This document shows, one piece after another, positions 3,449 to 35,870 of a stretch of 39,630 nt of DNA. Position 1 is the first letter of the stretch; each line of letters starts with the position of its first letter. Position numbers and translations under genes: made by a program. The notes beneath the pieces are model-generated. The model worked only from the letters and a program-made list of their open reading frames with translations. It did no database searches and was not told the origin of the DNA. The stretch comes from an uncultured Dehalococcoidales bacterium. GTDB taxonomy: Bacteria; Chloroflexota; Dehalococcoidia; Dehalococcoidales; BS750m-G39. The stretch covers positions 1-39,630 of the forward strand of contig CAZPLG010000001.1 in NCBI GenBank assembly GCA_964587415.1, in the 5' to 3' direction.

Positions 3449-3549
3449 TCTAAGAGGAAGAATACCCTCTAAGGGTGGGCAGGGCGGGTCAGAAAGACGT
3501 TTGCCAACAGAGTGGGGTGGTGAGTGGGACAACAAAGCGCACCCCACCC
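3449..3549. repeat. Copy 1 of the dispersed mosaic intergenic repeat (G-rich arm orientation)
   Basis: tctaagagg..ccctctaagGGGTGGGCAGGGCGGGtcagaaagacgt is nearly identical to 29417-29452. G4 motif at 3473-3488. Followed by a 9-bp hairpin ggtggggtg/caccccacc. Confidence 0.8.
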
Positions 3550-3590
3550 TGCCTGAGAATCCCAAAAATTAAGGGGGTAAGGGTGATAAG

Positions 3591-4010
3591 ATGGAACGTT
3601 CTTTAGTCCTGGTCAAACCCGACGCCATGAAAAGAGAACTGGCGGGAGCTATCATCGCCCGCCTGCAAAAGCTGGGCTTAAAGCTGGTGGCGGCCAAGAT
3701 GCTCCACGCCGATAAGGCTTTAGCCCGCAAGCACTACGCCGTCCACAAGGACAAGCCCTTCTACGACGACCTGGTCAACTATATCACCTCCGCCCCCATC
3801 GTCGCCTGCGTCTTCGAGGGCAAGAACGCCGTAGAAACCATTAGGAAGGCGATGGGCGCCACCGACCCGGCCAAGGCGGAAAAGGGCACGATACGGGCTG
3901 ATTTCGGGGAAAGCCTGGAGCGCAATAGCGTCCACGGCTCGGACTCGCCCGACAACGCCGAAATAGAAATAAGCCTCTTCTTCCACCCCGATGAAATCTT
4001 CGGTTACTGA
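3591..4010 (+). CDS. ndk: Nucleoside-diphosphate kinase
   Basis: 139-aa ORF. ERSLVLVKPDA start and active-site NSVHGSDS. Confidence 0.95.
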   Translation: MERSLVLVKPDAMKRELAGAIIARLQKLGLKLVAAKMLHADKALARKHYAVHKDKPFYDDLVNYITSAPIVACVFEGKNAVETIRKAMGATDPAKAEKGTIRADFGESLERNSVHGSDSPDNAEIEISLFFHPDEIFGY

Positions 4011-4333
4011 ATCCGCAGCACCGGTTTCGCCTGTTCCCAGAGCTCGTCGAGCTGGTAGTAATCGCGCTCAACGGGGGCAAAGATGTGGATGATAACATCG
4101 CCGAAGTCCAACAGCAGCCACCCCGAATCTATCGTCCCCTCGCGGTGGTGAGGGGTGATACCTTCGTGCTTTAGTCGGTGCCTCACCTCGTCGTAGATGG
4201 TGGTTAGCTGCCTCTCGGAATCGCCGCTGCATATCACGAAATAGTCGGCGAAGCTGCAAACCTCGCGGGTGTCGAGCAAAACAATGTCAATCGCCTGCTT
4301 GTCGGCAGCAGCCTCAACCGCCTGGCGCGCCAC
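4004..4333 (-). CDS. rsfS: Ribosome silencing factor RsfS (iojap family)
   Basis: 109-aa ORF with DYFVICSGDSERQ motif. The 3-prime end overlaps ndk by 7 bp (convergent). The GTG start at 4333 has no SD. An in-frame CTG at 4348 sits 7 nt after GGAGG, so the start is uncertain. Confidence 0.85.
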   Translation of the reverse strand: MARQAVEAAADKQAIDIVLLDTREVCSFADYFVICSGDSERQLTTIYDEVRHRLKHEGITPHHREGTIDSGWLLLDFGDVIIHIFAPVERDYYQLDELWEQAKPVLRIQ

Positions 4334-4372
4334 TTCTAACGATTCCAGAAGTCAGCCTCCATACTCAATAAT

Positions 4373-4381
4373 ATTATAGCA
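4373..4381 (-). promoter_or_regulatory. Candidate extended -10 promoter for rsfS
   Basis: The minus strand reads TGcTATAAT, about 40 nt upstream of the rsfS start. Confidence 0.4.
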
Positions 4382-4383
4382 TA

Positions 4384-4492
4384 CCACCCCCCGTCTTATA
4401 TCTTTTCTCACCACCCCCCAGGTTAAGGAGTTTATCTCATTAGGGCGGGCGGGTTGGGTCAGAAATACGTACGCAAAGCAAGGTGGGGTGGC
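4384..4492. repeat. Copy 2 of the dispersed mosaic repeat (short version)
   Basis: C-rich left part ccaccccccgtcttatatctttt. Then ccaggttaaggagtttatctcattaGGGCGGGCGGGTTGGGtcagaaatacgtacgc..ggtggggtgg. G4 motif at 4443-4458. Confidence 0.8.
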
Positions 4493-4515
4493 AGGGACAC
4501 CCCCTAACGAGAGTA

Positions 4516-4524
4516 TGCTATAAT
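4516..4524 (+). promoter_or_regulatory. Candidate extended -10 promoter for the 4552 gene
   Basis: TGcTATAAT lies 27 nt upstream of the ATG. SD-like gagagg in between. Confidence 0.45.
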
Positions 4525-4551
4525 TATGTTAACCACTCGTAGAGAGGCAAA

Positions 4552-5419: not shown

Positions 5420-5435
5420 ATAAGTTACGAGTCTA

Positions 5436-7361
5436 ATGATGAAATCGAACTGGATGCGCAACAGCTTAATATACATCATCATTCTGGTGGCGGCGGTCGT
5501 CCTCCTCTACCAGCTCTTCCCGACATCGCCCAAGCCGACCGAAGTCGGCCTGGAGCAGGTTATAGCCATGTCGCAGGACGGTGAGATAGCCGCCATTACC
5601 GTGGACAACGAAGAGCTGCTCATCACCACCCGCGACGGCAGCGAGCTAAAAACCGCCATCGGCAACCTCACCCTGGTCGAGCTTCAAGAGCTAGGCTTAA
5701 ATCTCGAAGGCGTGGATTACGAGGTCAAGCCTGCCGGCTTCGACTGGGGCAGTCTGCTCATCGGCTTCCTCCCCCTCATCCTCTTCGGCGCCCTCTTCTT
5801 CTTCTTATTCCGTTCGGCGCGGGGGGCTAACAGCCAGGCGATGAACTTCGGGCGCAGCCGCGCCCGCCTCATGCAGGGCAGCACGCCCACCGTTACCTTC
5901 GACGATGTCGCCGGCGTGGAAGAAGCCAAACAGGAACTGCACGAAGTGGTCGACTTCCTCAAGTCGCGGGAAAAATTCCAGAGCCTGGGGGCGCGCATCC
6001 CCAAGGGCATTTTGCTTATCGGCCCCCCCGGCACGGGCAAGACGCTATTGGCCAGAGCGATAGCCGGCGAAGCCGGCGTCCCCTTCTTCTCCATCAGCGG
6101 CAGTGAATTCGTCGAGATGTTCGTCGGCGTCGGTGCTTCAAGGGTGCGTGACCTCTTCGACCAGGCCAAGCGCAACACCCCCTGCATCATCTTTATCGAC
6201 GAGATTGACGCCGTCGGCCGCCACCGCGGCGCGGGCTTAGGCGGCGGCCATGACGAAAGGGAGCAGACCCTCAACCAGATTCTGGTGGAAATGGACGGCT
6301 TCGACACCAACACCAGCGTTATTATTCTGGCGGCGACCAACCGCCCCGATATACTGGACCCCGCCCTCCTCCGTCCCGGCCGCTTCGACCGAAGGGTGAT
6401 TCTAGACCGCCCCGACATCAACGGACGGACGGCAATTCTCAAGGTTCACACCAAGGGCAAGCCCCTGGCCGACGAGGTCGATTTAGAGGTGCTGGCTAAA
6501 CAGACGGCGGGCTTCAGCGGCGCCGACCTGGCTAACCTGGTCAACGAAGGCGCCATCCTGGCGGCTCGCCGCGGCCAGAAGGTCATCAAGATGAAGGAAC
6601 TGGAAGAATCGATCGACCGCGTGATGGCCGGCCCCGAACGCAAGAGCCGCCGCATCAGCCCCAAGGAAAAGGAAATCAGCGCCTACCACGAGGCGGGGCA
6701 CGCCCTGGTAGCCAAGCTTTTGCCCAACGCCGACCCGGTGCATAAGGTCTCCATCGTGGCGCGGGGCATGATGGGCGGTTACACCCGTCTCCTGCCCACC
6801 GAAGACCGCTACCTGATGACCAGCTCCCAGTTCAAGGACATGATTGCCACCCTGCTGGCGGGACAGACCGCCGAGGAATTGATATTCAAGGAAACGACCA
6901 CGGGCGCCCAGAGCGACCTCGAAGAAGCCACCAAGCTGGCGCATAAGATGGTGACCTCCTACGGGATGAGCGAAAAGCTCGGCCCCCGCACCTTCGGGCG
7001 CAAAGAGGAAATGGTCTTTTTAGGACGCGAAATCTCGGAGCAGCGCGACTACAGCGAGAAGGTCGCCCAGGAAATCGACGAAGAGGTCTATAGCATCATC
7101 CAGAACGCCCACGGCGAAGCCAGGCGCCTGCTCACCAAGAATAAGAAGCGGCTGGTCCATATCGCCGAAAAAATCATCGTCCAGGAAACCCTAGAGGGCG
7201 AAGAGCTGGAACTGGCTTTCACCGAACCCCTATCGGTCAAGCCCAAGGCTCGACCTGCCACCCAACCCGTCGCCGAGCCGCCCAAGGCAAAGGCTAAAAC
7301 GGCCCCCAAGAAAACGGCTCCGGCCCAGATTATCCCCAAACAGGCGCCGGCATCCTCATAG
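5436..7361 (+). CDS. ftsH: ATP-dependent zinc metalloprotease FtsH
   Basis: 641-aa ORF. Two N-terminal TM segments, Walker [12 protein letters not shown] region, HEAGHA zinc site. Pro/Lys/Ala-rich C-terminal tail. Confidence 0.97.
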
Positions 7362-12377: not shown

Positions 12378-12693
12378 CCACCCCACCCCCACCACCTTGT
12401 TATGCGGAGGTCTTTCTTTCCCACCCAATGCCCACCCTATAAGGGTTAGACCCTTATATATCTCTTATATGGGTTACGCCCTACCCCCGTGTCATTCCCG
12501 TGCAGACGGGAATCTAGTTTCCCCCTTTGTAAAAGCCCGCCTGCCAAAGCCTTGTGTGGCGGACAGGGGGGATTAAGGGGGATTTTCCTCAAAAGGGCAG
12601 TGGGCGGGAATAGATAAAATCGGGGTGGGGGGCAACGTGCCTCCAGGTTAAGGAGTTTAACTCATTAGGGCGGGCTGGGTGGGACGAAAAACC
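12378..12693. repeat. Copy 3 of the dispersed mosaic repeat (largest, composite, with inverted arms)
   Basis: Left arm CCCACCCAATGCCCACCC (12420-12437) plus hairpin 12439-12457. Internal hairpin attcccgt-gcag-acgggaat (12494-12513). Internal gggcagtgggcgggaatagataaaatcgg. Right arm ccaggttaaggagtttaactcattaGGGCGGGCTGGGTGGG (12643-12683). Confidence 0.85.
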
Positions 12694-12696
12694 TCC

Positions 12697-12725
12697 TTGA
12701 CTTTGCTCAACCCCTTTGTTATAGT
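12697..12725 (+). promoter_or_regulatory. Candidate sigma-70 promoter of the guaB3-like gene
   Basis: TTGACT (12697-12702), 17-nt spacer containing TG, TATAGT (12720-12725). ATG at 12747 preceded by aagaagg. Confidence 0.6.
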
Positions 12726-15414: not shown

Positions 15415-15750
15415 TTAAGCATGCTTTTCGGCGTAATCGCCCGCTATGGGCATCTTAATCTTCTCGCCCTGGTAAGCTTTTACCATCAGTATTATCCAGA
15501 GGACAAAAACGAACACCCAGAGAATCCAGCCGAAAACCCAGCCCACAATCGGTATCCAGAAAAGGATGGCGTAGACCACGCTGATGGCGCCGAAGACGAT
15601 GAGCGACTGTATGGCGTGAAAGCGCACGAACTTGTCCTTCTTCTCCAGAATCAGGAATGCCAGCCCGGTTACCCATAAAAGTAAGTAGCACAGTAATCCG
15701 GCAACGTTGGGCTTCAGCCCGGTGCTCGCTTTGCTCCTCGCTTGAGCCAT
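15415..15750 (-). CDS. DUF4870-like small integral membrane protein (paralog A)
   Basis: 111-aa ORF. NVAGLLCY..W.TGL.FL.LEKKDKFVRFHAIQS motif and 3 predicted TM helices. Confidence 0.75.
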   Translation of the reverse strand: MAQARSKASTGLKPNVAGLLCYLLLWVTGLAFLILEKKDKFVRFHAIQSLIVFGAISVVYAILFWIPIVGWVFGWILWVFVFVLWIILMVKAYQGEKIKMPIAGDYAEKHA

Positions 15751-15759: not shown

Positions 15760-16116
15760 TTATTTAGCGTATTTCTCGGCCAAATCCCCGGATATGGGCA
15801 GCTTATATTTTTCGCCCTTGTAGGCCTTAACCATGAGCACTATCCACAGAATCAGGGCACACAGCCCGACGAGATAGATTAGGATAAGGAAAAGTATCCA
15901 GATAAAGGGAATCCAGGTCAAAATCCACAATACAAGGTTTACCACACTAAAGGCGCCAAAGACGATTATGGACTGTATGGCGTGAAAGCGCACGAATTTG
16001 TCCTTCGGCTCAAGGAGCAGAAAAACCAGCCCGCTTACCCACCCCAGCACGTAGCACAGTAAGCCGGCAACATTCGGCTCCAGGCCGGTGCCTGTTTTGC
16101 CTTTATTTTCAGCCAT
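15760..16116 (-). CDS. DUF4870-like small integral membrane protein (paralog B)
   Basis: 118-aa ORF, clearly homologous to 15415-15750 at both termini (KDKFVRFHAIQS ... MVKAYxGEKxKxPIxGDxAEK). aaggagg SD. Confidence 0.75.
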   Translation of the reverse strand: MAENKGKTGTGLEPNVAGLLCYVLGWVSGLVFLLLEPKDKFVRFHAIQSIIVFGAFSVVNLVLWILTWIPFIWILFLILIYLVGLCALILWIVLMVKAYKGEKYKLPISGDLAEKYAK

Positions 16117-16225: not shown

Positions 16226-16541
16226 AATTAAATATCGTTAAAGGCTGGGAACGAGATTAGTAGGCCCCCAGCGAGGCTAGCAGAGAGCCGGGTTGAGGTG
16301 AAAACCGGCGCTGGCGTAGGGGTTGAATGGACTCGGGAGCTGCAAACCGAAAGGCCTTAATTCTTAATAAAAAGGGCGAGTAGGCTTTGCCGGAAAGGGT
16401 ACCGTTATTAAAACCCAGGGTATCGCTCCAGAATATCGAAGCCGTACCTGAAAAGAGATGACCCTTCGGAGGAAGGGTTAACTAGGGTGGCACCGCGAAG
16501 CATTAACCTTTCGCCCCTATCGGGCGAGGGGTTATTTTTTT
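16226..16541 (+). promoter_or_regulatory. T-box riboswitch leader with tryptophan (UGG) specifier
   Basis: - Stem I elements: AGTA (16259-16262), AGAGAG (16282-16287), distal hairpin gccgg-gttgaggtgaaaa-ccggc (16287-16309).
- Specifier loop GAA-TGG-A, with UGG at 16328-16330.
- T-box sequence aactaGGGTGGcACCGCG (16480-16497).
- Terminator at 16507-16541. Confidence 0.85.
16507..16541 (+). terminator. T-box-controlled intrinsic terminator
   Basis: 10-bp stem cctttcgccc / gggcgagggg (two G-U pairs), loop ctatc, then ttattttttt. SD agggag and the trpE ATG follow. Confidence 0.8.
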
Positions 16542-17989: not shown

Positions 17990-17990
17990 A

Positions 17991-19582: not shown

Positions 19583-19586
19583 GAAA

Positions 19587-20992: not shown

Positions 20993-21022
20993 AGCCTTAT
21001 CTCAACAAAGGAGGATAGTGAG

Positions 21023-23100: not shown

Positions 23101-23543
23101 AAATACTGGTCATTAACGGTCCCAACCTCAATATGCTGGGCAAAAGAGACGCCGAGCACTACGGCTCCGACACCCTGCAGGCAATAGAGCAAAAGCTCAT
23201 CGAGAAAAGCGAGTCGCTGGGCTGCGAGCTTAGCTTCTTCCAGTCCAACCACGAAGGCGCTATCATCGACTTCATCCAGGGGAAAGCAGAGGGAGCCGAC
23301 GGTATTCTCATCAACCCCGCCTCCCTCACCCACTACGGCTACTCCCTTCACGATGCCCTGGTTGACGCCGGATTGCCCGTGGTCGAGGTGCACCTGTCGG
23401 ACATTCAGCACCGGGAGGAATGGCGCCAAACATCGGTCATCGCCGATATAGCCATTAAGCAGATCAGCGGGCTTAAAAAACAGAGCTATATACTGGGGCT
23501 GGAAGCCCTGGTGGAACATATCAAGACCGGAAAGAAAAAGTGA
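23097..23543 (+). CDS. aroQ: Type II 3-dehydroquinate dehydratase
   Basis: MKILVINGPNLNMLGKR and HLSDIQHRE motifs. The ATG at 23097 lies 8 nt after AAGGAG and overlaps the aroB TGA. The alternative ATG at 23091 is too close to the SD. Confidence 0.93.
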   Translation: MKILVINGPNLNMLGKRDAEHYGSDTLQAIEQKLIEKSESLGCELSFFQSNHEGAIIDFIQGKAEGADGILINPASLTHYGYSLHDALVDAGLPVVEVHLSDIQHREEWRQTSVIADIAIKQISGLKKQSYILGLEALVEHIKTGKKK

Positions 23544-24823
23544 AGGTAAAGATAACGCCGTCACCGGTAACAGGCGAGCTATCGGCCCCGCCCTCCAAGA
23601 GCTACACCCATCGGGCGGTAATACTGGCTTCGCTGGCAACGGGGGAAAGCATAATCGAGAACCCCCTGCTGTCGGATGATACCCGTTACACCATAGACGC
23701 CTGCCGCGCCCTGGGTGCCGACGTTAAACTGCACGACGACAGCATCGTAGTTATCGGCACGGGCGGCAAAATCAGCCCCGAAAAGCAAGAGATATTCGCC
23801 GGCAATTCGGGCAGCACCATCAGGATGATAGCCCCGCTGGCGGCTTTGGGCAAAACAAAGGTTATACTCGACGGCGACAGCCGTCTGCGCCAGCGCCCTA
23901 TGGGCGACCTGCTCTCGGCGCTACAGAGCCTGGGGATTCAAACTCGCTCGCTGGGCGCTAAAGGCTGCCCCCCGTTTGAGATTCAGGACGGAGACTTTAA
24001 GGCTAACGAGGTTACCCTCTCCGGAGAAACCAGCTCCCAGCCCATAAGTGCCCTGCTCATGATTGCCTCTCAAACCAAAGAAGGTCTACGAATAAGAATC
24101 GACGGTGGGCTTCATTCCAAACCATATATTGACATTACCCTGGACGCCATGAGAGCCTTCGGCGTCGAGGCGGTCAACCGCGACTATAAAGAGTTTCTGG
24201 TCGAAGGCGGTCAGGTGTATAAAGCCCGCCGCTACCGCATCGAGGGCGACTATTCTTCCGCCGCCTATTTCCTGGCGGCGGGCGCTATCGGCGGCGGTCC
24301 CGTAACCGTAACCGACCTCAAGACCGATTCGGTACAGGGCGACAGACAACTTTTGACCATCCTCGCCGAAATGGGCGGTTCGGTTGACTATAAAAAGGAG
24401 GCGGTGAGAGTCCAACGCACTGGTGCACTCGAAGGCATTACTATCGACATGGGCGACTACCCCGACCTTGTCCCCACCCTGGCGGTGGTCGCCGCCTATG
24501 CCAGCGGCAAAACCAAGATAACCAACATCGCCCATCTGCGCTTTAAGGAAAGCGACCGTATCAAAGACACGGCGGCAGAACTGGGTAAAATGGGCGTTAA
24601 AACCGAGGTCAGTGGTGATACAATGGTAATATACGGCGGCAAACCTTTAGGCGCTAAAATCGACGCCCACAACGACCACCGCCTGGCCATGAGCCTTGGC
24701 GTGGCCGCCCTCTCCGCCGATGGCGATTGCATTATCAACGGCGCCGAAGCCGTCACCAAGTCCTATCCCCGGTTCTTTAGCGACCTGCTAAAATTAGGGG
24801 CCAGGGTCGAGGAACTGTCATGA
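23540..24823 (+). CDS. aroA: 3-phosphoshikimate 1-carboxyvinyltransferase (EPSP synthase)
   Basis: 427-aa ORF. KSYTHR and GNSGSTIR motifs. GTGA overlap with aroQ. Confidence 0.95.
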   Translation: MKVKITPSPVTGELSAPPSKSYTHRAVILASLATGESIIENPLLSDDTRYTIDACRALGADVKLHDDSIVVIGTGGKISPEKQEIFAGNSGSTIRMIAPLAALGKTKVILDGDSRLRQRPMGDLLSALQSLGIQTRSLGAKGCPPFEIQDGDFKANEVTLSGETSSQPISALLMIASQTKEGLRIRIDGGLHSKPYIDITLDAMRAFGVEAVNRDYKEFLVEGGQVYKARRYRIEGDYSSAAYFLAAGAIGGGPVTVTDLKTDSVQGDRQLLTILAEMGGSVDYKKEAVRVQRTGALEGITIDMGDYPDLVPTLAVVAAYASGKTKITNIAHLRFKESDRIKDTAAELGKMGVKTEVSGDTMVIYGGKPLGAKIDAHNDHRLAMSLGVAALSADGDCIINGAEAVTKSYPRFFSDLLKLGARVEELS

Positions 24824-26115
24824 ACATCGTCCTTATCGGCATGAGGGGTTCGGGCAAGACAGCGGTGGGCAGGATTCTAGCCCAAAAGCTGGGCCGGGAG
24901 TTTATCGAGATGGACAAGCTTATCGTCCAGAGAGCGGGACTGAGCATTTCCGAGATTGTGGCTCAACACGGCTGGGAAAGATTCCGCGAGCTGGAAGCAG
25001 AAGTAACCACCGAGGTGGCTGAGCGCGATAATATCGTCAACGCCACGGGCGGCGGCGTGGTCGTTAGAGAGCAGAATATTGTAAAGCTAAAGCAGAATGG
25101 CTTATTGGTCTGGCTCACCGCCAGTGTCAATAGCCTATCAAAGCGCATCGGTGAGGATGACAGCCGCCCGCTGCTCAAAGGCAAAACGCAGCGCCAAGAC
25201 TTGGAAATAACGCTGGCCGAACGCCAACCCCTCTACCGAAAGGCCGTCGACATCACCATCGACACCGAGAACAAGACACCGGAGGCAATAGCCGAGATAA
25301 TCGCCGACACCAAAATCTGCTGCCTCATCGGCGACCCCGTCGAGCACTCGCTATCCCCCCTCATCCACAACACCGCCTATAAAGCGCTGGACATCAACTA
25401 CGCCTATATTACCCTACCCGCCGGCGACATCGAGCGGGCGTTAGCGGAGATAAGAGAGCGCGGCATACGGGGCGCCAGCGTTACCACCCCCCACAAGGTC
25501 AACGCCCTGAAACACCTCGATCTTGTTGACCCCACCGTCCAGGCCATCGGTGCCGTCAACACCATCGTCAACGATAACAGCGTGCTCACCGGCTATAACA
25601 CCGATGGCGACGCCGCCCTCAAGGCATTAGAGGAAGTCACCGACCTCGGCGGCAAGAGAGTCGTCCTCGTCGGCAGCGGCGGTGCCGCCCTGGCTATCGC
25701 CGCCGCGCTTAAAGAAAAGGGGGCTAAGCTTGTGATTCTGAACCGCACCGGGGCTAAAGCCCGCCAACTGGCGGACAAGCTCGATGCCGAGGACGCGGGG
25801 GATTTAAGCAGAATTTCGCTGGTCGCCGAGGCCGATATACTAATAAACGCCACCACGGTGGGCATGGCGCCCGAAACCAGTGAGACCATTGTTCCCCAAA
25901 AATTCCTGCACGAGCGCCTCACCGTCTTCGACATCGTCTATAACCCCAGAGAAACCCGGCTGCTCCGGGAAGCCCGGGTGAAGGGGTGCGCCGTCGTCTA
26001 CGGCGACAAGATGCTGCTCTACCAGGCAGCCCAACAGTTCGAACTCTTTACCGGCCACCCCGCCCCACTCAAAATAATGGAGTCGGCCCTGACTAAAGCC
26101 CTGGGAGGAGGATAG
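24820..26115 (+). CDS. aroK/aroE: Bifunctional shikimate kinase (N-terminal) / shikimate 5-dehydrogenase (C-terminal) fusion
   Basis: 431-aa ORF. Residues 1 to about 165 carry the P-loop GMRGSGKT plus the SK fold. From about residue 168, CLIGDPVEHSLSPLIHN and GSGGAA Rossmann motifs of AroE. ATGA overlap with aroA. Confidence 0.9.
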   Translation: MNIVLIGMRGSGKTAVGRILAQKLGREFIEMDKLIVQRAGLSISEIVAQHGWERFRELEAEVTTEVAERDNIVNATGGGVVVREQNIVKLKQNGLLVWLTASVNSLSKRIGEDDSRPLLKGKTQRQDLEITLAERQPLYRKAVDITIDTENKTPEAIAEIIADTKICCLIGDPVEHSLSPLIHNTAYKALDINYAYITLPAGDIERALAEIRERGIRGASVTTPHKVNALKHLDLVDPTVQAIGAVNTIVNDNSVLTGYNTDGDAALKALEEVTDLGGKRVVLVGSGGAALAIAAALKEKGAKLVILNRTGAKARQLADKLDAEDAGDLSRISLVAEADILINATTVGMAPETSETIVPQKFLHERLTVFDIVYNPRETRLLREARVKGCAVVYGDKMLLYQAAQQFELFTGHPAPLKIMESALTKALGGG

Positions 26116-26117
26116 TC

Positions 26118-27272
26118 ATGCTACGCATTCTAACCGCTGGAGAATCTCACGGCCCCGCCTGCCTGGCCATCATCGAGGGCATGCCCGCCGGGGTCAGGCT
26201 CAAAGTCGCCGACATTAATAGCGACCTCAAGCGCCGCCACGCCGACTTCGGTAGAGGCGGACGAAAGCTCATCGAAGAGGACAGGGCCGAAATCCTCGCT
26301 GGCGTTAGGTACGGCAAAACCTTGGGCAGCCCCATCGCCTTGATGGTCAAGAACATGGACTTCGCCAACTGGCGGGAGGAGATGAGCCTTGAGGAAACCA
26401 ATAAACCAGCGCAAAAAGTAACCAAGCCCCGCCCCGGCCACGCCGACCTGGCGGGAGCCATAAAGTACGGCCAGGACGACATCAGGAACATCTCGGAAAG
26501 GGCCAGCGCCCGAGAAACGATAAGCCGGGTCATGGCGGGGGCGGCGGTAAAACAAATGCTGGCCGAGTTCGCTATCGCCATCGCCAGCCACACCGTCCGC
26601 ATCGGCGAGGTGGCTCTGGATAAAGGCGACTATTCCTTCGACGAGGTGGCAAAAGCCTTTACCACCGACCCCGATATTCGCTGTATTGATTCAGAAACAT
26701 CAGAGAAGATGAAGCAGGCAATCAAGGTAGCTGCCGCCGGAAAAGACACCCTGGGCGGTGTCGTCGAGGTCATCGCCGCTGGCGTCCCCACAGGTTTGGG
26801 CAGTGTTATGCACTACGACCGCCGCCTCGACGGCAAAATCGCCCAGGCATTGATGAGCATCCCCTCGGCCAAAGCGGTCGAAATCGGCAACGCTATTGCC
26901 GGCGCCGCCATGTTCGGCTCCGAATTTCAGGACCCCATCAGCTATAAGGGCAACCGCTTCACCCGTGAGAGCAACAATGCGGGCGGCATAGAAGGCGGCA
27001 TGAGCAACGGCAAAAACATCATCTGCCACGTCTACCACAAGCCAATTTCAACACTCGGCGAGCCCGTGGAGACAGTGGACATCGCCAGTCGCAAGTCGGC
27101 GAAAGCCAGCGTGGAGCGTTCCGATATCTGCGCCGTCCCCAGAGCCGGGGTCATTGCCGAAGCCATGCTGGCTCTGGTCTTAGGTGAAGCCATGATTGAG
27201 AAGTTCGGCGGCGACAGCATCGGTGAGATGAAGCGCAACTTCAGCGCCTACCTTAAGGAGAGAGGCTTATGA
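26118..27272 (+). CDS. aroC: Chorismate synthase
   Basis: 384-aa [12 protein letters not shown]-terminus, RPGHAD, GGISNG-like GGMSNG. Confidence 0.96.
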
Positions 27273-28450
27273 TAGACGAAAGGGGATACTTCGGAGACTA
27301 CGGCGGGCAGTTCGTCCCCGAAACCTTAATGCCCGTCCTCGATGAGCTTAGCCAGGCCTACCGGAAGGCAAAGGACGACAAGGCTTTCTGGCGCCAGTTC
27401 GAGGCGCTATCCCGCGACTATTCGGGCCGGCCGACGTCACTTTACCTGGCCAAAGGCTTGACCGAGCATTGCGGCGGCGCCAAGATTTTCCTCAAGAGGG
27501 AAGACCTGGCCCACACCGGTGCCCACAAGATTAACAACGCTCTCGGCCAGGGGCTTCTGGCCAAGAAGATGGGCAAGCGAAGAATCATCGCCGAAACCGG
27601 TGCCGGGCAGCACGGTGTCGCCGCTGCCGCCGTCTGCGCCATGCTGGGGCTGGACTGCATCGTCTATATGGGCGAAGAAGACGTCCAGCGCCAGTCCCTC
27701 AACGTTTTTCGGATGAGATTAATGGGCGCCGAGGTCAGGCCCGTGGCCAGCGGCAGCCGCACCCTCAAGGACGCCATCAACGAAGCGATAAGGGACTGGG
27801 TGACCAACCCCGACACCTATTATCTTCTGGGCTCGGTGGTCGGCCCCGCCCCCTACCCCACTATGGTCAGGGACTTCCAATCGGTAATCGGCCGGGAGAC
27901 GAGGCAGCAGATTCTGGCTGAAGTAAAACGTCTGCCTGATTACATCGTCGCCTGCGTCGGCGGTGGCAGCAACGCCATCGGCATCTTCTATCCCTTTTTG
28001 GAAGACAAGGATGTTAAACTAATCGGCGTCGAGGCGGCGGGCCGGGGCATCAAGACCGGGCAGCACGCCGCCCCCTTAATGGCGGGAACGGTGGGCGTTC
28101 TCCACGGCACGAAGTCCTACGTCCTTCAGGACGAGGGCGGCCAAATCAGGGAGACACACAGCGTCTCGGCCGGCCTCGACTACCCCGGTGTCGGCCCCGA
28201 GCACAGCTATCTTAAAGACAGCCGCCGCGCCGAATACGTGGCGGTAACCGACGAGCAGGCACTGGAGGGCTTTCAACTGCTCTGCAAGACCGAGGGCATC
28301 GTCCCCGCCCTAGAACCCGCCCATGCCATCTACCACGCGGTGGAGATGGCTAAATCGTTAGACAAGGAGCAAATCATTGTGGTCAACCTCTCCGGCCGCG
28401 GCGATAAGGACATGGATATCGTGGCTAAAGAGCTGGGGGTGGAGCTATGA
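27269..28450 (+). CDS. trpB: Tryptophan synthase beta chain
   Basis: 393-aa [19 protein letters not shown] (PLP lysine) and [12 protein letters not shown] overlap with aroC. Confidence 0.97.
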
Positions 28451-29217
28451 ACCGGATTGCGGCTGTCTTCGCTCAGCGCGACCATAAAGCCTTAATTCCT
28501 TATGTTACCGTGGGCTATCCCAGCCTAGAAGCCACCCTGAAGGTAGTCCCCCTTCTGGCTAAAAACGGCGCCGATATCGTCGAACTGGGCATTCCCTTCT
28601 CCGACCCCCTCGCCGACGGCGTCACCATCCAGCGCTCCAGCTTCCACGCCCTTAAACAAGGCGTCACCCCTCAACTCTGCCTTGAGACAGCCAAAAAGCT
28701 GCGGGAGAAAGTAGATATCCCCCTCGTCTTTATGACTTACTATAACCCCGTGTTTCATTATGGACTGGAGGAGTTTTGCAACGCCTGCGTCGGCTCCGGC
28801 ATCGATGGTTTAATCATCCCCGACCTCCCCCCCCAGGAAGGCGCCGACCTGGAGGCAATCACCAAAAAGCAGGACCTCGACCTCATCTATCTTTTAGCTC
28901 CCACCAGCACCGAGGAGCGCATCAGGCTGGTGGCGCAAAGGTCGCGCGGCTTCATCTACCTGGTCTCGGTGACGGGCGTTACTGGCGCCAGGGACAGGCT
29001 ACCCGCCGATTTAGAGGTCTTCGTCAGCCGGGTCAAGCAGTCGGTCGCCCAGCCCCTCTGTGTCGGCTTCGGCATATCGACACCGTCACAGGCAAAGCGC
29101 GTCGCCCTCCTGGCGGATGGGGTCATTGTGGGCAGCTGCATCATTCAGCTCATGGAGTCCGGGGACATGCCCCAAGTGGGAGAGTTTATCAAGGGACTGC
29201 GGGAAGCGCTCGGCTAA
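28447..29217 (+). CDS. trpA: Tryptophan synthase alpha chain
   Basis: 256-aa [16 protein letters not shown] motif. ATGA overlap with trpB. Confidence 0.96.
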
Positions 29218-29252
29218 ACTACAATCTAGACCGACCTTCTCGCTCTTTACCG

Positions 29253-29472
29253 CCCCACCCCAGGTTCTTCTTCCCACCCAATACCCACCCTATAAGGGTT
29301 AGACCCTTATATATCTCTTATCTGGGATACGCCCCACACCCCCGCCCCCTCTTAAACACCCCCAAAAGGGAGGGGTGGAGTGGCCGTAACCCGGAAGGAA
29401 TTCTAGAGGGAGAATCCCCTCTAAGGGTGGGTAGGGCGGGTCAGAAAAACGTACGCTCAACAAGGTGGGGGC
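29253..29472. repeat. Copy 4 of the dispersed mosaic repeat (complete, with inverted arms)
   Basis: Left arm CCCACCCAATACCCACCC (29273-29290) plus hairpin 29292-29310. Right side has hairpin 29404-29423 plus arm GGGTGGGTAGGGCGGG (29425-29440) and tcagaaaaacgtacgc..ggtggggg. Confidence 0.85.
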
Positions 29473-29492
29473 TGTATAATCCAGGGTGAAGC

Positions 29493-29969
29493 TTATTCTT
29501 CTTCGTGCCCGGATGTCCTCCCGTACAAAGCTCCGTTTCCGCCGGTAAAAAAGAAAACGGGGCTATCGATTCTGTGGAACAAGAGGGGAAGATGTTTCAT
29601 GCCTCGGGGAACAAAGATGAGACTGCTTTCCGTGATGATATATTGTTCATCCTCAAGCCAGAGCTCGATTTCGGCATTCAAATCACGCGGATTTTCCCTT
29701 CGACTGCCCACGAATCCCAGAATTTCATCGAAATCATGGGTATGGGCTATCTCCATCTCTACCGCTTCCGCCCCGTGCTTTTCCCAGAGCCAGACACAAT
29801 CAAAGTAAAAGGACCCTTTTAGTACACTCTCGTCTAGCGATAACATACGGGTGGCCTCGAAGTAATTACCGGCCTGCCTCTGCTCCTCCATCCTTTTGAG
29901 AAATCCCGCGGGAGGTGGCTCAGAAAAACATTCTGTTGTGATGTATTTGGCATACTTCTTTTGGGACAC
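29493..29969 (-). CDS. Cupin-like hypothetical protein
   Basis: 158-aa ORF. Cupin-type motifs AHTHDFDEILGF and FVPRGMKHLP. G+C visibly lower than the neighbours. aggagg SD upstream. Confidence 0.65.
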   Translation of the reverse strand: MSQKKYAKYITTECFSEPPPAGFLKRMEEQRQAGNYFEATRMLSLDESVLKGSFYFDCVWLWEKHGAEAVEMEIAHTHDFDEILGFVGSRRENPRDLNAEIELWLEDEQYIITESSLIFVPRGMKHLPLLFHRIDSPVFFFTGGNGALYGRTSGHEEE

Positions 29970-33034: not shown

Positions 33035-34915
33035 ATGGTAGAGCAGGTCAGAAAACTACTGGAGAAAAGATTGGAAAGCGCCGAAGGGCTGGAAAGCCTG
33101 CGCCAGTCCATTCTGGCCAAGCGAGACCCCCAGCGCACCTGCATATCGGTCTGCGGCGGCACCGCCTGCCGCGCCGCGGGAGCGGAAGGGGTCGTTGACG
33201 CCTTTCTGGATGAAATCGAAAGGCGAGAGCTCCAGGTGAAGGTATCGCTCAAGGAAACGGGGTGCCACGGCTTCTGTGAGCGCGGTCCCCTGGTTGTTAT
33301 TGAGCCTAAGAAGATTCTCTACCAGCAGGTCAAGCCTGAGGACGTCGAGGAGATTATCGACGAAACCATCGTGGCCGGCAGGGTCATCGAGCGCTTACTC
33401 TATGTCGACCCGACGACCAACGAAACCATCACCTACGAGCCCGACGTCCCCTTCTACAAGAAGCAAACCAGGAATATCTTCGGCGTTAACGGCACGATTG
33501 ACCCGACGAATATTGAAGACTATATCGCCAGCGGCGGCTACTCCGCCCTGAGCAAAGCCTTATTCCAGATGACCCCGGAAAAGATTGTCGCCGAGGTCAA
33601 GAAGTCGGGGCTGCGGGGGCGGGGCGGCGGCGGATTTCCTACGGGGAGAAAGTGGCAGTCCTGCCTCGAGGCTAAGGGCAAGGTCAAATACGTCATCTGC
33701 AACGCCGACGAGGGCGACCCCGGCGCCTACCAGGATAGAAGCCTGCTGGAAGGCAACCCTCACAGCATCCTGGAAGGCATGATAATCGGCGCCCACGCCA
33801 TCGGCTCCCACCAGGGCTATATCTACGTCCGCAATGAATACCCCCTGGCGGTAAGGCACGCCCGCATCGCCATAGAGCAGGCGATGGACTACGGGCTGCT
33901 GGGCAAGAACATTTTAGGCTCCGGCCTCGACTTCAACATAACCATAAATAAGGGCGGCGGTGCCTTTGTCTGCGGCGAGTCCAGCGCCCTCATGGCATCA
34001 CTGGAAGGCAAGATAGGCGAACCCAAGGCGAAATACGTCCACATGGCGGAAAAAGGCCTCTGGGAACACCCCAGCCTGCTTAACAATGTGAAGACCTGGG
34101 CTAACGTCCCCCTGATAGTAAATAAAGGCGCCGACTGGTACTCAAAGCTCGGCACGGCCGGCAGCAAGGGCACGATGATATTCTCCCTGGTGGGCAATAT
34201 CGTCAACACCGGGCTGGTCGAAGTTCCCATGGGGATAACCCTGCGCCAGATGATATTCGATATCGGCGGCGGCATCCCCGACGGCAAGAAGTTCAAGGCG
34301 GTGCAAACGGGCGGTCCCTCGGGCGGCTGTATTCCAGAGCAGCTTCTGGATACGCCCGTGGACTTCGACGAGCTAACCAAGCTCGGCTCGATGATGGGCT
34401 CGGGCGGCATGATCGTCATGGACGAAGACACCTGCATGGTCGACGTCGCCCGCTACTTTATCGAGTTCTTAAAAGGCGAGTCCTGCGGCAAGTGCACCCC
34501 CTGCCGCGAGGGCATCAACCGCATGAGCCAAATCTTAAGCAACATTACCCAAGGCAAGGGTAAGCCCGAAGACCTGGATACTCTGCAAGACCTGGCTGAG
34601 GTCTTGAGCGCCGGCGCCCTCTGCGCGCTGGGCCAGACGGCGGCCAACCCGGTATTGAGCACCATCCGCTACTTTAAGGACGAATACCTGACCCATATAA
34701 ATAATAAAAAATGCCCCGCGGGCGTCTGCCGGGAGCTGGTGCGCTTCTCCATCGACCCCGAAAAGTGCGAAGGCTGCCTCAGGTGCATCAGGGAATGCCC
34801 CACCGGGGCTGTCACCGGCGAGAAAAAACAGCCCCACACCATAAACCAGGATATGTGTATCCGCTGCGGCGCCTGCTACGACGTCTGCAAGTTCAACGCC
34901 GTAATAAAGCGGTAA
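33035..34915 (+). CDS. NuoF/HydB-like NAD(P)H-binding flavoprotein with extra N-terminal [2Fe-2S] and C-terminal 2x[4Fe-4S] domains
   Basis: 626-aa ORF. GRGGGGFPTGRKW (FMN/NADH site), ESCGKCTPCREG (N3 cluster), CEGCLRCIRECP and CIRCGACYDVC ferredoxin motifs. Confidence 0.9.
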   Translation: MVEQVRKLLEKRLESAEGLESLRQSILAKRDPQRTCISVCGGTACRAAGAEGVVDAFLDEIERRELQVKVSLKETGCHGFCERGPLVVIEPKKILYQQVKPEDVEEIIDETIVAGRVIERLLYVDPTTNETITYEPDVPFYKKQTRNIFGVNGTIDPTNIEDYIASGGYSALSKALFQMTPEKIVAEVKKSGLRGRGGGGFPTGRKWQSCLEAKGKVKYVICNADEGDPGAYQDRSLLEGNPHSILEGMIIGAHAIGSHQGYIYVRNEYPLAVRHARIAIEQAMDYGLLGKNILGSGLDFNITINKGGGAFVCGESSALMASLEGKIGEPKAKYVHMAEKGLWEHPSLLNNVKTWANVPLIVNKGADWYSKLGTAGSKGTMIFSLVGNIVNTGLVEVPMGITLRQMIFDIGGGIPDGKKFKAVQTGGPSGGCIPEQLLDTPVDFDELTKLGSMMGSGGMIVMDEDTCMVDVARYFIEFLKGESCGKCTPCREGINRMSQILSNITQGKGKPEDLDTLQDLAEVLSAGALCALGQTAANPVLSTIRYFKDEYLTHINNKKCPAGVCRELVRFSIDPEKCEGCLRCIRECPTGAVTGEKKQPHTINQDMCIRCGACYDVCKFNAVIKR

Positions 34916-34927
34916 AAGGAGGTAGTT

Positions 34928-35641
34928 ATGGCTAAGGTATGGATTGACGGTGAAACTTCGATAGAGGTGGAACACGCCGAAGGCGTCGACATTGTCCACC
35001 TCACCGTAGACGATAAAGAGATCGCCGTATCGGCGGGAAAAACAATTCTAGAGGCGGTGGAGCGCATGCACGGCATCGGTAATATACCCGCCCTCTGCCA
35101 CCACCCCGCCGTTAAGCCCTACGGTGCCTGCCGCATCTGCACCGTCGAGGTCAGCGAGGACGGCGGCAACAGGTTCAAGTTCGTCGCCGCCTGCCTCTAC
35201 CCGGTCAAAGAGGGCTTGATAGTCAAGACCCAGACCGAAAAGATAAAGAAGCTGCGCAAGGGCATAATCGAGCTTTTACTAGCCCGCTGTCCTAACGTCA
35301 AGAGGATACAGGAGCTGGCCGAGGAATACGGCGTGGAAAAACCCAGATTTGTCTTAGGCGACCAGGACTGCATCCTCTGCGGCTTGTGCGTCCGGGCCTG
35401 CCAGGAGATAATCGGCAAGTCGGCGATAAGCCTGGTCAACCGCGGCATCTATAAAGAGGTGGCGGCGCCCTTCTACGCTTACGAGCTTAGCGGCGACTGC
35501 ATCGGCTGCGGCGACTGCGCCTTCGTCTGCCCCACCGGCGCTATCAAGATGGGCCCCGACGGCAGACCCGACCTGCCCAAGGTCAAGATACCCTACGCCG
35601 AAATCGAGGCCATGATGAAGAAGGAGACGGTGTCTTCGTAA
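34928..35641 (+). CDS. Truncated NuoG/HydA-N-terminal-like iron-sulfur protein ([2Fe-2S] + 2x[4Fe-4S], no catalytic domain)
   Basis: 237-aa ORF. LCHH...CRICTVEV 2Fe-2S motif, then CILCGLCVRAC and CIGCGDCAFVCP. Ends before any H-cluster or molybdopterin domain, and a terminator follows. Confidence 0.85.
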   Translation: MAKVWIDGETSIEVEHAEGVDIVHLTVDDKEIAVSAGKTILEAVERMHGIGNIPALCHHPAVKPYGACRICTVEVSEDGGNRFKFVAACLYPVKEGLIVKTQTEKIKKLRKGIIELLLARCPNVKRIQELAEEYGVEKPRFVLGDQDCILCGLCVRACQEIIGKSAISLVNRGIYKEVAAPFYAYELSGDCIGCGDCAFVCPTGAIKMGPDGRPDLPKVKIPYAEIEAMMKKETVSS

Positions 35642-35669
35642 AAGATAGACGCAGACTAGAAGCTAAAAA

Positions 35670-35704
35670 GGGTGTCGAGATATTATCGGCACCCTCTTCT
35701 TTTA
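35670..35704 (+). terminator. Rho-independent terminator of the nuoEFG-like operon
   Basis: 8-bp stem gggtgtcg / cggcaccc (one G-U), 9-nt loop, then tcttctttta. Confidence 0.65.
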
Positions 35705-35705
35705 T

Positions 35706-35870
35706 CCCGACCACCCACACCGATTTTATCTATTCCCACCCGCCGCCCTTTTAAGGTAAAGAGGGGCTACGCCCCTCTTAAACACCCCCAAAGGGGGGGC
35801 GGGGTGGGGGCGTAACCCCCAGGTTAAGGAGTTTACTCATTAGGGCGGGCTGGGGTGGGACAAAAAACCC
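35706..35870. repeat. Copy 5 of the dispersed mosaic repeat
   Basis: ccgattttatctattCCCACCCGCCGCCC is the reverse complement of 12595-12623. tacgcccctcttaaacacccccaaaggg is shared with 29328-29370. Right arm ccaggttaaggagtttactcattaGGGCGGGCTGGGGTGGG (35819-35859). Confidence 0.85.

Follow-up and report, generated by a model that had tools for sequence, protein, structure and literature searches.

The window analysed here (39,630 nucleotides from an uncultured Dehalococcoidales bacterium) harbours dispersed repeats which are best read as an undescribed, lineage-specific family. They are probably small non-coding elements of the REP/BIME/REPIN kind, i.e., structured as single strands, recombining and confined to their lineage. 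A preliminary description had also proposed a repeat family, from shared blocks in five intergenic regions, and this interpretation was supported; the five blocks proved real, though not independent, since they are pieces of a single modular unit of about 90–100 nt with fixed polarity. The unit consists of a 5' flank (GGGGNGGGG..CGTAACCC), an interchangeable "head" hairpin (types A–E), a run of the form GGGYGGG-N1-4-GGGYGGG (four G3 tracts with short variable loops), an A-rich spacer 3' of the G-run and a conserved tail (ACGTACGC..AAGGTGGGG). Directly 5' of the head stand SD-like motifs (AAGGAG, AGGAGG or GAAGGAA), and several unrelated heads are carried on one body. The canonical 5' GTAG/CGTC tag of REPs was absent from the units, which are located in gene spacers only.

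Every reported position bore its block, and all five families were recovered: D3 (4415, 12640 and 35816; 51 nt, 73–86% identity), D7 (12418 and 29271; 71 nt, 93%), D4 (3453 and 29405; 48 nt, 92%), D12 (29346 and 35772; 47 nt, 85%) and the inverted pair I1 (12583–12632 versus 35711–35760; 50 nt, 86%). The 17-mer CCAGGTTAAGGAGTTTA occurred three times, versus 0.00 times expected (100 shuffles), and direct reading of the sequence confirmed that HPIRVRPLYISY, ascribed to two junk ORFs, is the translation of caccctataagggttagacccttatatatctcttat. When the 20 window spacers of at least 40 nt were compared with 35 loci from other genomes, the five regions were the sole repeat carriers, matching 7–35 loci each versus 0–2 for the other spacers. 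Crude ORF calls gave the contexts as tandem (3449), divergent (4384 and 12378) and convergent (29253 and 35706), in agreement with the variety of contexts described. A sixth site was added at 58–84, where the window has the short allele of an array present in sister contigs.

This short allele (no strand assigned) is a 27-nt spacer with a small hairpin, tgtattttcccaaagggggaaatactt, just upstream of the -35/-10 boxes of the gene starting at 128. Sister contigs carry at this site an array of about 470 nt with five units (E-, D+, C+, A+, C+), which in L001 stands at 6033–6494; beyond this point, starting at window position 83, L001, L002, L004 and L005 match the window at 99.97–100% identity. Upstream of ndk, a solo type B unit occupies 3453–3521 (+ strand, D4), with the head hairpin AGAGG..CCTCT at 3453–3470, the G-run GGGTGGGCAGGGCGGG at 3473–3488, then the spacer, and the tail AACAGAGTGGGGTGG at 3506–3521; an imperfect G/C-rich hairpin extends 3' of it to 3549. 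At 4384–4419 a truncated type D unit (- strand, C-rich on the + strand) is fused to the next unit, and alignment with L042 and L049 showed full D(-) units at its position. The adjoining type A unit at 4415–4492 (+, D3; head GGTTAAGGAGTTTATCTCATTA at 4421–4442, G-run at 4443–4458, tail to 4491) precedes the extended -10 promoter (tgctataat) that serves an AP-endonuclease-family gene.

The composite beginning at 12378 has as its left arm a type C unit at 12378–12479 (-, D7, with hairpin covariation). Its tail (12378–12410), G-run (12420–12437) and 5' flank CGTAACCCA (12470–12478) are read as reverse complements, and its head hairpin, TATAAGGGT-TAG-ACCCTTATA, is at 12438–12458. An internal hairpin module, gtcattcccgtgcagacgggaatctag (12491–12517, no strand assigned), is a member of a second small repeat family, with related "..cgcaatgac" or "gggaatgac" modules in L007, L012, L024, L026, L036, L038 and L051. 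It is followed by a type D unit (..AAAAGGGCAGTGGGCGGGAATAGATAAAATCGGGGTGGGG; 12583–12633, +), whose inverted copy is at 35711–35760 (I1), and by the right arm, a type A unit at 12640–12696 (+, D3; head 12646–12667, G-run 12668–12683); the D-to-A adjacency of 12583–12696 was also found in L008 and L036. The tail of the right arm is deleted and the unit therefore abuts the -35 box TTGACT at 12697; in the ortholog L020 the tail is complete, and the window deletion lies between two AAAAACC repeats. Downstream of trpA, a type C unit at 29250–29331 (-, D7; G-run, reverse complement, 29273–29290; head hairpin 29291–29311) resembles, when read on the + strand, a weak terminator (hairpin, then TATCTCTTAT). 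A central C-run/G-run linker module (ccccctcttaaacacccccaaaagggaggggtgg; 29332–29383, no strand assigned), common with 35772–35818 (D12), connects to a type B unit at 29384–29472 (+, D4), with the 5' flank CCGTAACCCGG, the head GGAAGGAATTCTAGAGGGAGAATCCCCTCTAA at 29393–29424, the G-run at 29425–29440 and the tail to 29472, directly followed by TGTATAAT. The last composite comprises a type D left arm (35711–35760, -, I1), the hairpin AGAGGGGCTACGCCCCTCT with a C-run/G-run linker (35760–35809, no strand assigned, D12) and a type A unit at 35810–35879 (+, D3; 5' flank GCGTAACCCCCA, head 35822–35842, G-run 35843–35859). The stop and last ~14 codons (..GPPPPQGFLSHPSPP*) of a MatE-family ORF (35840–37246, -) come from the complementary strand of this unit.

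Units were found solo, in head-to-tail (tandem) arrays or as head-to-head inverted pairs. Inverted arms had been said to bound the larger copies, and 14 close "- +" (head-to-head) pairs were indeed counted, besides several tandem runs; no "+ -" (tail-to-tail) pair was present among close unit pairs. In head-to-head pairs the G-rich and C-rich arms are able to pair, giving a long hairpin: composites folded with z = -3.1, -4.4 and -2.4, that at 29250–29472 as one long hairpin (z = -3.1), and single units did not fold past the head hairpin (z = -0.05 to -1.8). Composites measure 179–314 bp, with tails ..ACGTACGC..AAGGTGGGG inverted at the ends and arms about 65–80% alike with different heads.

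The hairpin structure is selected. In type C heads (n = 20), 96% of cells were paired and five of nine pairs change on both sides, with a covariation score reached in 0 of 500 shuffles; type A stems occurred as GAG/CTC, GGG/CCC and AAG/CTT. G·T pairs outnumbered A·C pairs in the head hairpin by 13 to 1, and the hairpin is therefore maintained on the G-rich strand. The G-tracts are also selected, with loops free to vary: among copies ascertained by the head alone, four intact tracts followed the head in 41 of 45 type A, 8 of 8 type B and 22 of 25 type C copies, loop 2 showed at least 12 variants, and three different hairpins were inserted in loops (2 and 3) with the tracts intact. Between the window and L074, third-codon-position identity was 0.70 and head plus G-run were identical at 39 of 41 positions; the sequence of the family is thus conserved far above neutral expectation. 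A peptide-coding head was excluded by 1-nt indels in the head.

Pairing of G·T on one strand only would also suit structured non-coding RNAs or UTR leaders, i.e., transcribed units acting as a protein sponge (via the AAGGAG/GGA motifs), an RNA G-quadruplex, a terminator or a stabiliser. The position of the SD-like motifs directly before the head, a lepB-pyrE spacer filled by one unit in two species, and the type C head, in which reversed reading gives a hairpin and then a T-rich run, point in the same direction. Such a role is nevertheless very unlikely. The Rfam search proposed in the preliminary description gave no family match to the units even at E up to 5, and -35/-10 or extended -10 boxes can be recognised on the downstream side of units, so that most gene-upstream units stand outside the mRNA of that gene. 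Consensus folding with RNAalifold yielded almost no structure (-2.75 kcal/mol), single units forming only the head hairpin; a candidate helix between flank and G-run was without covariation in alignments inspected by eye, the head indels rule out a peptide, and the terminator-like feature is confined to one head type in one orientation.

The exact type A core was present in 36 copies in 10 other Dehalococcoidales species representatives, each assembly having 2–5; the context was divergent for 12 copies, convergent for 9 and tandem for 12. The blocks are thus not restricted to the five window regions. Relatives with at least 86% identity contained 0.16 units per kb, those at 72–85% identity contained diverged G4-hairpin units (G4 motifs 0.32–0.36 per kb), and no units were found in the most distant relatives sampled (60–71%). 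Being common to at least 10 species and diverged in sister clades, the family is old; several copies are syntenic between species, and the family is therefore resident as well as dynamic. Literature searches for an earlier description of such a repeat family were negative. Contigs often terminate inside units, which indicates that assemblers struggle there, but chance similarity or an assembly artefact is a practically negligible explanation: zero chance matches are expected, the same units recur in independent assemblies (JGI, GenBank MAGs, Logan), and the junctions of alternative alleles are unique in sequence.

Content turns over rapidly: from one close relative to the next, and also inside a single population, sites have acquired, lost or exchanged units. 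At the AP-endonuclease promoter, relatives carry A, A'+C, B, one of three C variants, an A/C chimera or no unit (empty in L060/61 and L091). The ndk site carries B, A or none, with a breakpoint inside the tail; in L042, whose coding sequence is about 97% identical, the head is a type A variant and identity resumes within the tail, and L047, L049 and L050 have no element. Within the same population two sites are polymorphic: the array and the short allele (about 470 versus 27 nt) alternate between contigs 99.97–100% identical, and L122 shows at the trpA site a 72-nt deletion removing the head, with altered G-tracts. The blocks are not stable leaders, the alternative considered at the outset, and the refuting test proposed there thus came out in favour of a repeat family. 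At the sites compared, ends were ragged, with neither a clear target-site duplication nor a constant insertion target.

Presence/absence polymorphism and composites of 179–314 bp with inverted tail ends could also be explained by classical MITEs, in which head-to-head composites (180–315 bp) would be mobile through cut-and-paste by a DDE transposase recognising the terminal inverted tails, solo units being decayed halves. A possible 7–8-nt direct repeat, CAC(T)CCCCC, flanks an insertion of about 190 nt in L057/L113 versus L060. We consider this distinctly unlikely: the arms are dissimilar, the ends are ragged and no consistent target-site duplication was found, the head-to-tail arrays and single-unit swaps with internal breakpoints are unlike whole-element cut-and-paste, and the strand-specific G·T pairing indicates a single-strand form. 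The absence of a transposase from the window, as described, held for the ten window proteins scanned for domains; the remaining genes in L001–L003 are ordinary, and the 782 kb examined showed no related insertion sequence. Of the two labels suggested earlier, "MITE-like" and "REP/BIME-like mosaic", the latter fits better, because neither a target-site duplication nor a transposase was found.

Among outermost units, 44 of 65 have the gene beyond the tail in the same orientation, as do 24 of 33 solo units; the tail-to-start distance is mostly 40–95 nt, which places the unit just upstream of the -35 box; in three resolved cases (the gene at 128, the AP endonuclease and an IMPDH-like gene) the last unit abuts the promoter. 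These data could suggest host-maintained non-B DNA modules tuning the downstream promoter, in which hairpin and G-quadruplex would be extruded on the non-template strand by negative supercoiling behind RNA polymerase and would absorb supercoiling, act as insulators or be bound by a regulator recognising G-tracts or hairpins. The G-rich strand being sense to the downstream gene in the co-oriented units, the kept G-tracts with variable loops, the syntenic copies in several species and the AP-endonuclease site, where all detected units (about 12 distinct alleles) point towards the gene whatever their type, would be in accordance. Such modules are possible, although unlikely: the same promoters are unit-free in close relatives or sister strains (L060/61, L091, L047/49/50, window 58–84), unit type, number and promoter distance vary freely, about one third of the units are downstream of convergent genes, and the flanked genes are ordinary, with no common functional theme. 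A constant orientation at one site would also be expected from gene conversion of heads within one ancestral insertion.

The closest known systems share some features with these repeats and differ in others. REPs and BIMEs are GTAG/CGTC-tagged palindromic repeats of E. coli, Pseudomonas and Stenotrophomonas; GTAG repeats were reported in the phylum Chloroflexi, with GTAG-23 in T. roseum (PMC3733652, PMC2817692). Common features are extragenic short stem-loops (stems 6–9 bp, loops 3 nt), sub-families in which stems show compensatory changes and G·T pairs, predominance of head-to-head dimers, clusters forming mosaics with other short motifs, abundance and content differing between strains, and copies sometimes overlapping gene ends. 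In contrast to REPs, the present unit is three times longer, with the hairpin merely as head and the four-G-tract run plus tail as the constant part; it has no unpaired 5' GTAG or CGTC tag, bears several unrelated heads on one body, commonly forms head-to-tail arrays, which are rare among REPs (PMC3733652), and is without a RAYT found. REPINs of Pseudomonas fluorescens are mobilised by RAYTs (PMC3116915, PMC3337134); they share with our repeats a long hairpin from two inverted units, which may be what replicates, persistence by vertical descent together with within-genome dynamics, and an implied single-strand structure. The arms here, however, usually have different head types and are about 65–80% alike, doublets are matched in frequency by solo and tandem units, and no flanking single-copy RAYT, the defining feature of REPINs, was seen.

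TMECO/PIT, the intrastrand-triplex repeats of E. coli (CCCTCNCCC-N3-6-GGGNGAGGG-N3-GGGNGAGGG; PMC4666352), are likewise intergenic, highly conserved, multicopy G-rich non-B-DNA motifs with loops less conserved than tracts, no link to known mobile elements and a flanking context unusually variable between strains. Our units differ in the absence of a pyrimidine arm 5' to the G-run (no Y-R-R' order), in four G3 tracts with 1–4-nt loops, which fit a quadruplex and not a triplex, and in the extra hairpin head, the tail and the formation of arrays. In Neisseria, a G-quadruplex upstream of pilE (G3TG3TTG3TG3) starts pilin gene conversion; pilE is one locus, served by a dedicated sRNA promoter and by silent cassettes as donors. 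The G-run here (GGGTGGGTATTGGGTGGG) is of nearly the same kind (G4Hunter score 2.0 versus 2.5 for pilE), may also lie upstream of a gene and is associated with cassette-like sequence replacement; unlike pilE, dozens to hundreds of copies are dispersed, and the G-run is not evidenced as the exchange trigger. Bacterial MITEs (Correia, ERIC/IRU, RU-1/2/3, RPE) are similar as intergenic composites of 100–300 bp with inverted ends, occasionally extending ORFs and polymorphic in presence; they differ from the present modular units, for which no defined termini, target-site duplication or parent insertion sequence were found.

For the mode of spread, we infer that the active form would be single-stranded DNA of the G-rich strand, because that strand alone maintains the hairpin and also bears the G-run. 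A trans-acting enzyme recognising hairpin DNA, perhaps RAYT/IS200-like or another type encoded elsewhere in the genome, might carry out copying or replacement; no Y1/RAYT-like ORF was detected in the 782 kb examined, a weak test with three approximate query sequences. Alongside such an enzyme, the conserved flank, G-run and tail could be substrates of homologous recombination or gene conversion, which would exchange heads as cassettes and expand or collapse arrays. We count against this explanation the lack of a mobilising enzyme among the findings, the ragged ends lacking both a clear target-site duplication and a fixed insertion target, the missing canonical 5' GTAG/CGTC tag, the several copies syntenic between species and the frequency of head-to-tail arrays, rare among REPs (PMC3733652).

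Survivors would accumulate immediately before promoters and immediately after genes, since these may be the only permissive places in a compact genome. Effects on neighbours would likely be incidental: the MatE-family ORF gains a new C-terminus, trpA is followed by a weak terminator-like hairpin, and units abut -35 boxes. The orientation bias and the uniform direction at the AP-endonuclease site could mean host function rather than selfish spread; on the best reading of our analysis, however, the repeats probably resemble in behaviour the "junk" repeats of REP/BIME type known from other bacteria, and not gene switches.

A repeat search of the window recovered every one of the shared blocks listed in the preliminary description. 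They comprise the direct repeat families D3 (4415, 12640 and 35816), D4 (3453 and 29405), D7 (12418 and 29271; 71 nt, 93% identical) and D12 (29346 and 35772), and an inverted pair, 12583–12632 versus 35711–35760; the 17-mer CCAGGTTAAGGAGTTTA occurs three times in the window versus zero expected occurrences. When all 20 window spacers of ≥ 40 nt were compared with 35 loci from other genomes, the five spacers named at the outset alone shared repeats with these loci (7–35 loci each), the remaining 15 matching 0–2. A scan of one genome per prokaryotic species with a 27–28-nt pattern from block D3 gave 36 matches in 35 loci, all of them in 10 MAGs whose titles name Dehalococcoidales or Dehalococcoidia, and no match outside these MAGs; the repeat family is thus lineage-specific. 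Exact type A cores (defined below) numbered 2–5 per MAG assembly, the MAG loci being partial, and exact matches to window proteins were present in several JGI metagenome contigs. Another direct repeat, D1 (176 nt, 78% identical), lies in the adjacent minus-strand ORFs 15415–15750 and 15760–16116 (111 and 118 aa), which are probably tandem paralogues, unrelated to the repeat family. At the 38–39 kb end of the window, where GC is lower (46%), an IrrE/Peptidase_M78-like ORF (38983–39522) adjoins an ArsR-family HTH regulator (38384–38800), both on the minus strand.

Alignment of the copies, together with a listing of everything adjoining runs of four G-tracts, showed that the blocks exist as described but are not independent: all are parts of a single polar unit of about 90–100 nt. 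The unit begins with a 5' flank, GGGGNGGGG..(A/G)CGTAACCC(N)A, and an SD-like motif (AAGGAG, AGGAGG or GAAGGAA), followed by a head of type A (GGTTAAGGAGTTTACTCATTA), type B (GAAGGAATTCTAGAGGGAGAATCCCCTCTAA), type C (..ATATATAAGGGTCTAACCCTTATA, with stem variants), type E (AAGGGGGC-NNN-GCCCCCTC..GACTTCTGTT) or type D, a shorter relative of the other types. After the head come the G-run, GGGYGGG-N1-4-GGGYGGG, an A-rich spacer and the tail, ACGTACGCTAACA(A/G)GGTGGGG(T)GG, which often continues into the 5' flank of the next unit; the putative quadruplex-forming sequences are GGGTGGGTATTGGGTGGG and GGGCGGGCTGGGTTGGG. The 39.6-kb window holds 10 modules, namely three of type A (+), two of type B (+), two of type C (−) and three of type D. 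They include a type B unit upstream of ndk (3453–3521), a type A unit upstream of an AP-endonuclease-family gene (4415–4492) and composites at 12378–12696, 29250–29472 and 35711–35879. The same spacers contain a second small repeat family (window 12491–12517; loci L024, L036, L038 and L051 of other genomes), with hairpins such as gtcattcccgtgcagacgggaat and, in L051 upstream of ndk, the inverted ends GTCATTGCGAG..CTCGCAATGAC; further G/C hairpin modules include CCCCCTCTCC..GGAGAGGGGG and AAGGGGGC..GCCCCCTT.

The type C head consists of a 9-bp stem with a 3-nt loop. In 20 such heads 96% of the cells were paired and five of the nine pairs had changes on both sides, as in the stem variants AAGGGT/ACCCTT, AGAGGT/ACCTCT, AGGGGT/ACCCCT, AGAAGT/ACTTCT and AAAGGT/ACCTTT; the covariation score was equalled by none of 500 shuffles. 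Type A showed the compensatory variants GAG/CTC, GGG/CCC and AAG/CTT. Since mismatched pairs in the heads were G·T in 13 cells versus A·C in one, the hairpin may be maintained on the G-rich strand and not on both strands, which is indicative only, because a single pair accounts for 10 of the 13 G·T cells, which could be inherited. In copies ascertained by the head alone, four intact G3 tracts followed in 41 of 45 type A, 8 of 8 type B and 22 of 25 type C copies. The canonical quadruplex-forming pattern (four runs of ≥ 3 G, loops of 1–7 nt) was present in 87 of 96 units, with G4Hunter scores of 2.0–2.1 for the G-run. At least 12 variants of loop 2 occur, and three different hairpins are inserted in loop 2 or 3 with the tracts left intact (L012/L025, L001 and L067/L073). 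Between the window and L074 70% of third codon positions, taken as the neutral rate, were shared in the neighbouring gene, and 39 of 41 positions in head and G-run. These comparisons indicate that the head hairpin and the G-tracts are under selection; quadruplex folding is predicted.

Across the window and the 35 loci, an HMM of G-run and tail detected 79 units. Among them were 14 close "− +" pairs, with heads facing and tails outward, forming composites of 179–314 bp, and at least seven head-to-tail runs; the number of close "+ −" pairs was zero. Folded as single-stranded DNA, the three window composites gave long imperfect hairpins (z = −3.1, −4.4 and −2.4), with imperfect arms carrying different heads, and single units folded at the head only (z = −0.05 to −1.8). 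A function of the units as RNA is highly improbable. RNAalifold on 35 type A units gave almost no consensus structure, and no tRNA or tmRNA origin was found. A helix pairing CCCAG of the 5' flank with CTGGG of loop 2-tract 3, and a stem ACGTACGC/GCGTAAC from the tail to the next flank, were both rejected on inspection of the alignment, since the partner of the variable base never changes. At the gathering threshold the only Rfam match in the window was a T-box, unrelated to the repeats; at E values up to 5 the repeat regions gave chance-level microRNA and lncRNA matches only. This T-box leader, at 16238–16521 (+) and scoring 102.8 bits, which exceeds the gathering threshold, lies directly upstream of a long operon (16553–29217, +), whose last genes encode Trp synthase beta and alpha; its spacer contains no repeats. 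Nor do the units have coding potential: a short reading frame opposite the type A head (ATGAGTAAACTCCTTAAC..), on the reverse strand, was rejected because copies differ by 1-nt indels.

Gene contexts were counted from crude ORF calls. Co-orientation with the gene beyond the tail was seen for 44 of 65 outermost units and for 24 of 33 solo units, the distance from tail end to start codon being usually 40–95 nt. Recognisable −35/−10 or extended −10 boxes sit between unit and gene, so that most of these units precede the promoter and lie outside the mRNA. This orientation bias and the promoter-proximal position would speak for a host function of the units as non-B DNA upstream of promoters, which we consider unlikely; about one third of the units follow convergent genes. 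Only type C resembles an intrinsic terminator, and weakly, types A and B showing no such fit: on the C-rich strand the type C head is a terminator-like hairpin with three G-C pairs (TATCTCTTAT), correctly placed after trpA but not at 12438. At 35840–35885 (−) a MatE-family ORF takes its stop codon and final ~14 codons (..GPPPPQGFLSHPSPP*) from a type A unit, read on its C-rich strand, and the repeat has replaced or extended the 3' end of this gene. A minus-strand ORF of 158 aa after a repeat composite (29493–29969) has no Pfam match and a GC3 of 0.55 versus ~0.8 in its neighbours, and the overlapping plus-strand ORF 29505–29822 is no better. A TGTATAAT box at 29473–29480 is directed from the repeat into this region, which may be foreign or non-coding DNA.

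A scan of metagenomes with the AP-endonuclease-family protein yielded 80 orthologous loci (64–97% amino-acid identity), which were compared upstream of one shared extended −10 promoter. This site carries type A in the window and L074, type C plus A' in L042/43 (97%), three type C variants in L045, L050 and L051, an A-head/C-body chimera in L048, type B in L049 and diverged units in the group with 75–80% identity; it is empty in L060/61 and L091. Unit density drops along the identity gradient from 0.16/kb in close relatives to zero: relatives in the middle of the gradient have a diverged "hairpin plus GGGCGGGAGGGTGGG" form, and those at ≤ 71% identity have AT-rich spacers without units. Upstream of ndk a cassette of ~100 nt differs between the window (type B) and L042 (type A variant), identity resuming within the tail, and the site is empty in L047, L049 and L050. 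Turnover extends to near-identical strains. Contigs L001, L002, L004 and L005, which are 99.97–100% identical to the window over 4–12 kb, contain a five-unit array of ~470 nt in place of 27 nt of the window (58–84). This polymorphic site directly follows a clean intrinsic-terminator-like hairpin (24–57, cagaggcagacgctataaaaagcgcctgcctctt) that ends the upstream gene. At 29.3 kb, L122 from the same population carries an allele with a 72-nt deletion. In this allele the C-rich run (L122 2290–2330) is also altered, from CCCACCCAATACCCACCC to ACCACCCAAAAACCACCC, with every G-tract broken at once; it may have arisen by decay of the copy or be an artefact of the consensus sequence. The same-population contigs retrieved showed no polymorphism at 12.3 kb and 35.7 kb. 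A type A unit in the lepB-pyrE spacer is kept in both L017 and L021, orthologous loci that differ in the ribD-lepB spacer. Contig ends frequently fall within units.

Insertion polymorphism among related genomes, as present at the AP-endonuclease and ndk sites, at 58–84 and in the L122 deletion, is shared with MITEs. These, however, have defined terminal inverted repeats and a target-site duplication, whereas the inverted tail ends of the composites are ragged, and comparison of filled and empty ndk, AP-endonuclease and position-58 sites gave no consistent duplication, the junctions being too ragged. A classical MITE is very unlikely; this and the RNA reading are the weaker ones. The only candidate target-site duplication was CAC(T)CCCCC, found on both sides of a ~190-nt hairpin-module insertion upstream of the AP-endonuclease promoter in L057 and L113 versus L060. 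The earlier statement that the window contains no transposase held when ten window proteins were searched against Pfam. A phmmer search with three approximate sequences (IS200, IS608 and E. coli RAYT), a weak test, gave no match to a Y1-type ORF among ORFs of ≥ 70 aa in 782 kb. Integron attC, CRISPR, DGR and retron were rejected on anatomy: the units have neither a GTTRRRY core nor spacers, reverse transcriptase is lacking, and the neighbours are housekeeping genes.

The closest described elements are REP/BIME, REPIN and the E. coli TMECO repeat. With REP/BIME the units share an extragenic stem-loop (stem 5–13 bp, loop 2–20 nt), compensatory sub-families and G·T pairs, and also clusters of alternating orientation in which head-to-head dimers predominate; the head-to-tail runs are atypical. 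REP palindromes carry an unpaired tetranucleotide, GTAG or CGTC, at one of their ends (PMC3733652). This tag is missing here, the heads ending in ..TGTA|GGG, ..TATA|GGG, ..ATTA|GGG or ..CTAA|GGG; the letters GTAG occur in some type C copies only, on the 3' side and partly within the stem, and CGTC is absent. REP/BIME copies number tens to hundreds or more per genome, and any genome-wide figure for the units is an extrapolation from partial MAG loci. The three window composites resemble REPINs, inverted doublets folding as one long hairpin. In REPIN-RAYT systems the repeats flank a single-copy Y1 (HUH) transposase gene; the four genes flanked by units here are ordinary (EF-G-like, signal peptidase and the like). 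The triplex repeat TMECO has a pyrimidine, a purine and a second purine arm in order on one strand (PMC4666352); the units lack this order, having no CCCNCCC arm before the G-run and head stems that are R-then-Y. What appears to be new is the covarying hairpin with a strictly conserved quadruplex-type run and interchangeable heads. The family had not been recognised at first sight, and the literature searches made for an earlier description gave none; we know of no REP, REPIN or MITE family that combines a covarying hairpin with a strictly kept G-quadruplex motif, and the literature searched contained none.

The evidence fits a resident, lineage-specific, selfish or near-neutral family of the REP/BIME/REPIN kind, because of the dispersal, the fixed polarity, the head-to-head doublets and the one-strand, structure-preserving evolution, and also because sub-families are common to species, chimeras occur and units are gained, lost and swapped very fast. 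We propose that spread proceeds through single-stranded DNA of the G-rich strand, processed by an enzyme whose gene would lie elsewhere in the genome; in addition, recombination between the constant parts (flank, G-run and tail) would swap heads and lengthen or shorten arrays. It is conceivable, although quite unlikely, that the unit is a recombination device that renews itself: lying upstream of active promoters in the non-template strand, the G-run would fold and stall or nick the DNA, as at Neisseria pilE, triggering gene conversion from other units. This would explain the cassette-like replacement of heads, the expansion and collapse of arrays and the strict conservation of four G-tracts; promoter-proximal DNA would then, as a by-product, be rewired across a clade of streamlined Dehalococcoidales without a dedicated transposase. 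Unless the G-run is shown to drive recombination, the family is not a new principle.

Streamlined genomes, those of Dehalococcoidia among them, are generally considered to contain few small dispersed repeats. The REP/BIME/REPIN-like units occupy one quarter of the larger window spacers, break metagenome assemblies and give rise to junk ORFs and to a new protein C-terminus. They differ between otherwise identical strains; a model of the unit would help to annotate and bin these MAGs better and would supply strain-level markers. With dozens of variant copies per genome, by extrapolation, the family would be a natural test system for selection on G-quadruplexes, for the promotion of recombination and for the enzyme which copies the units.
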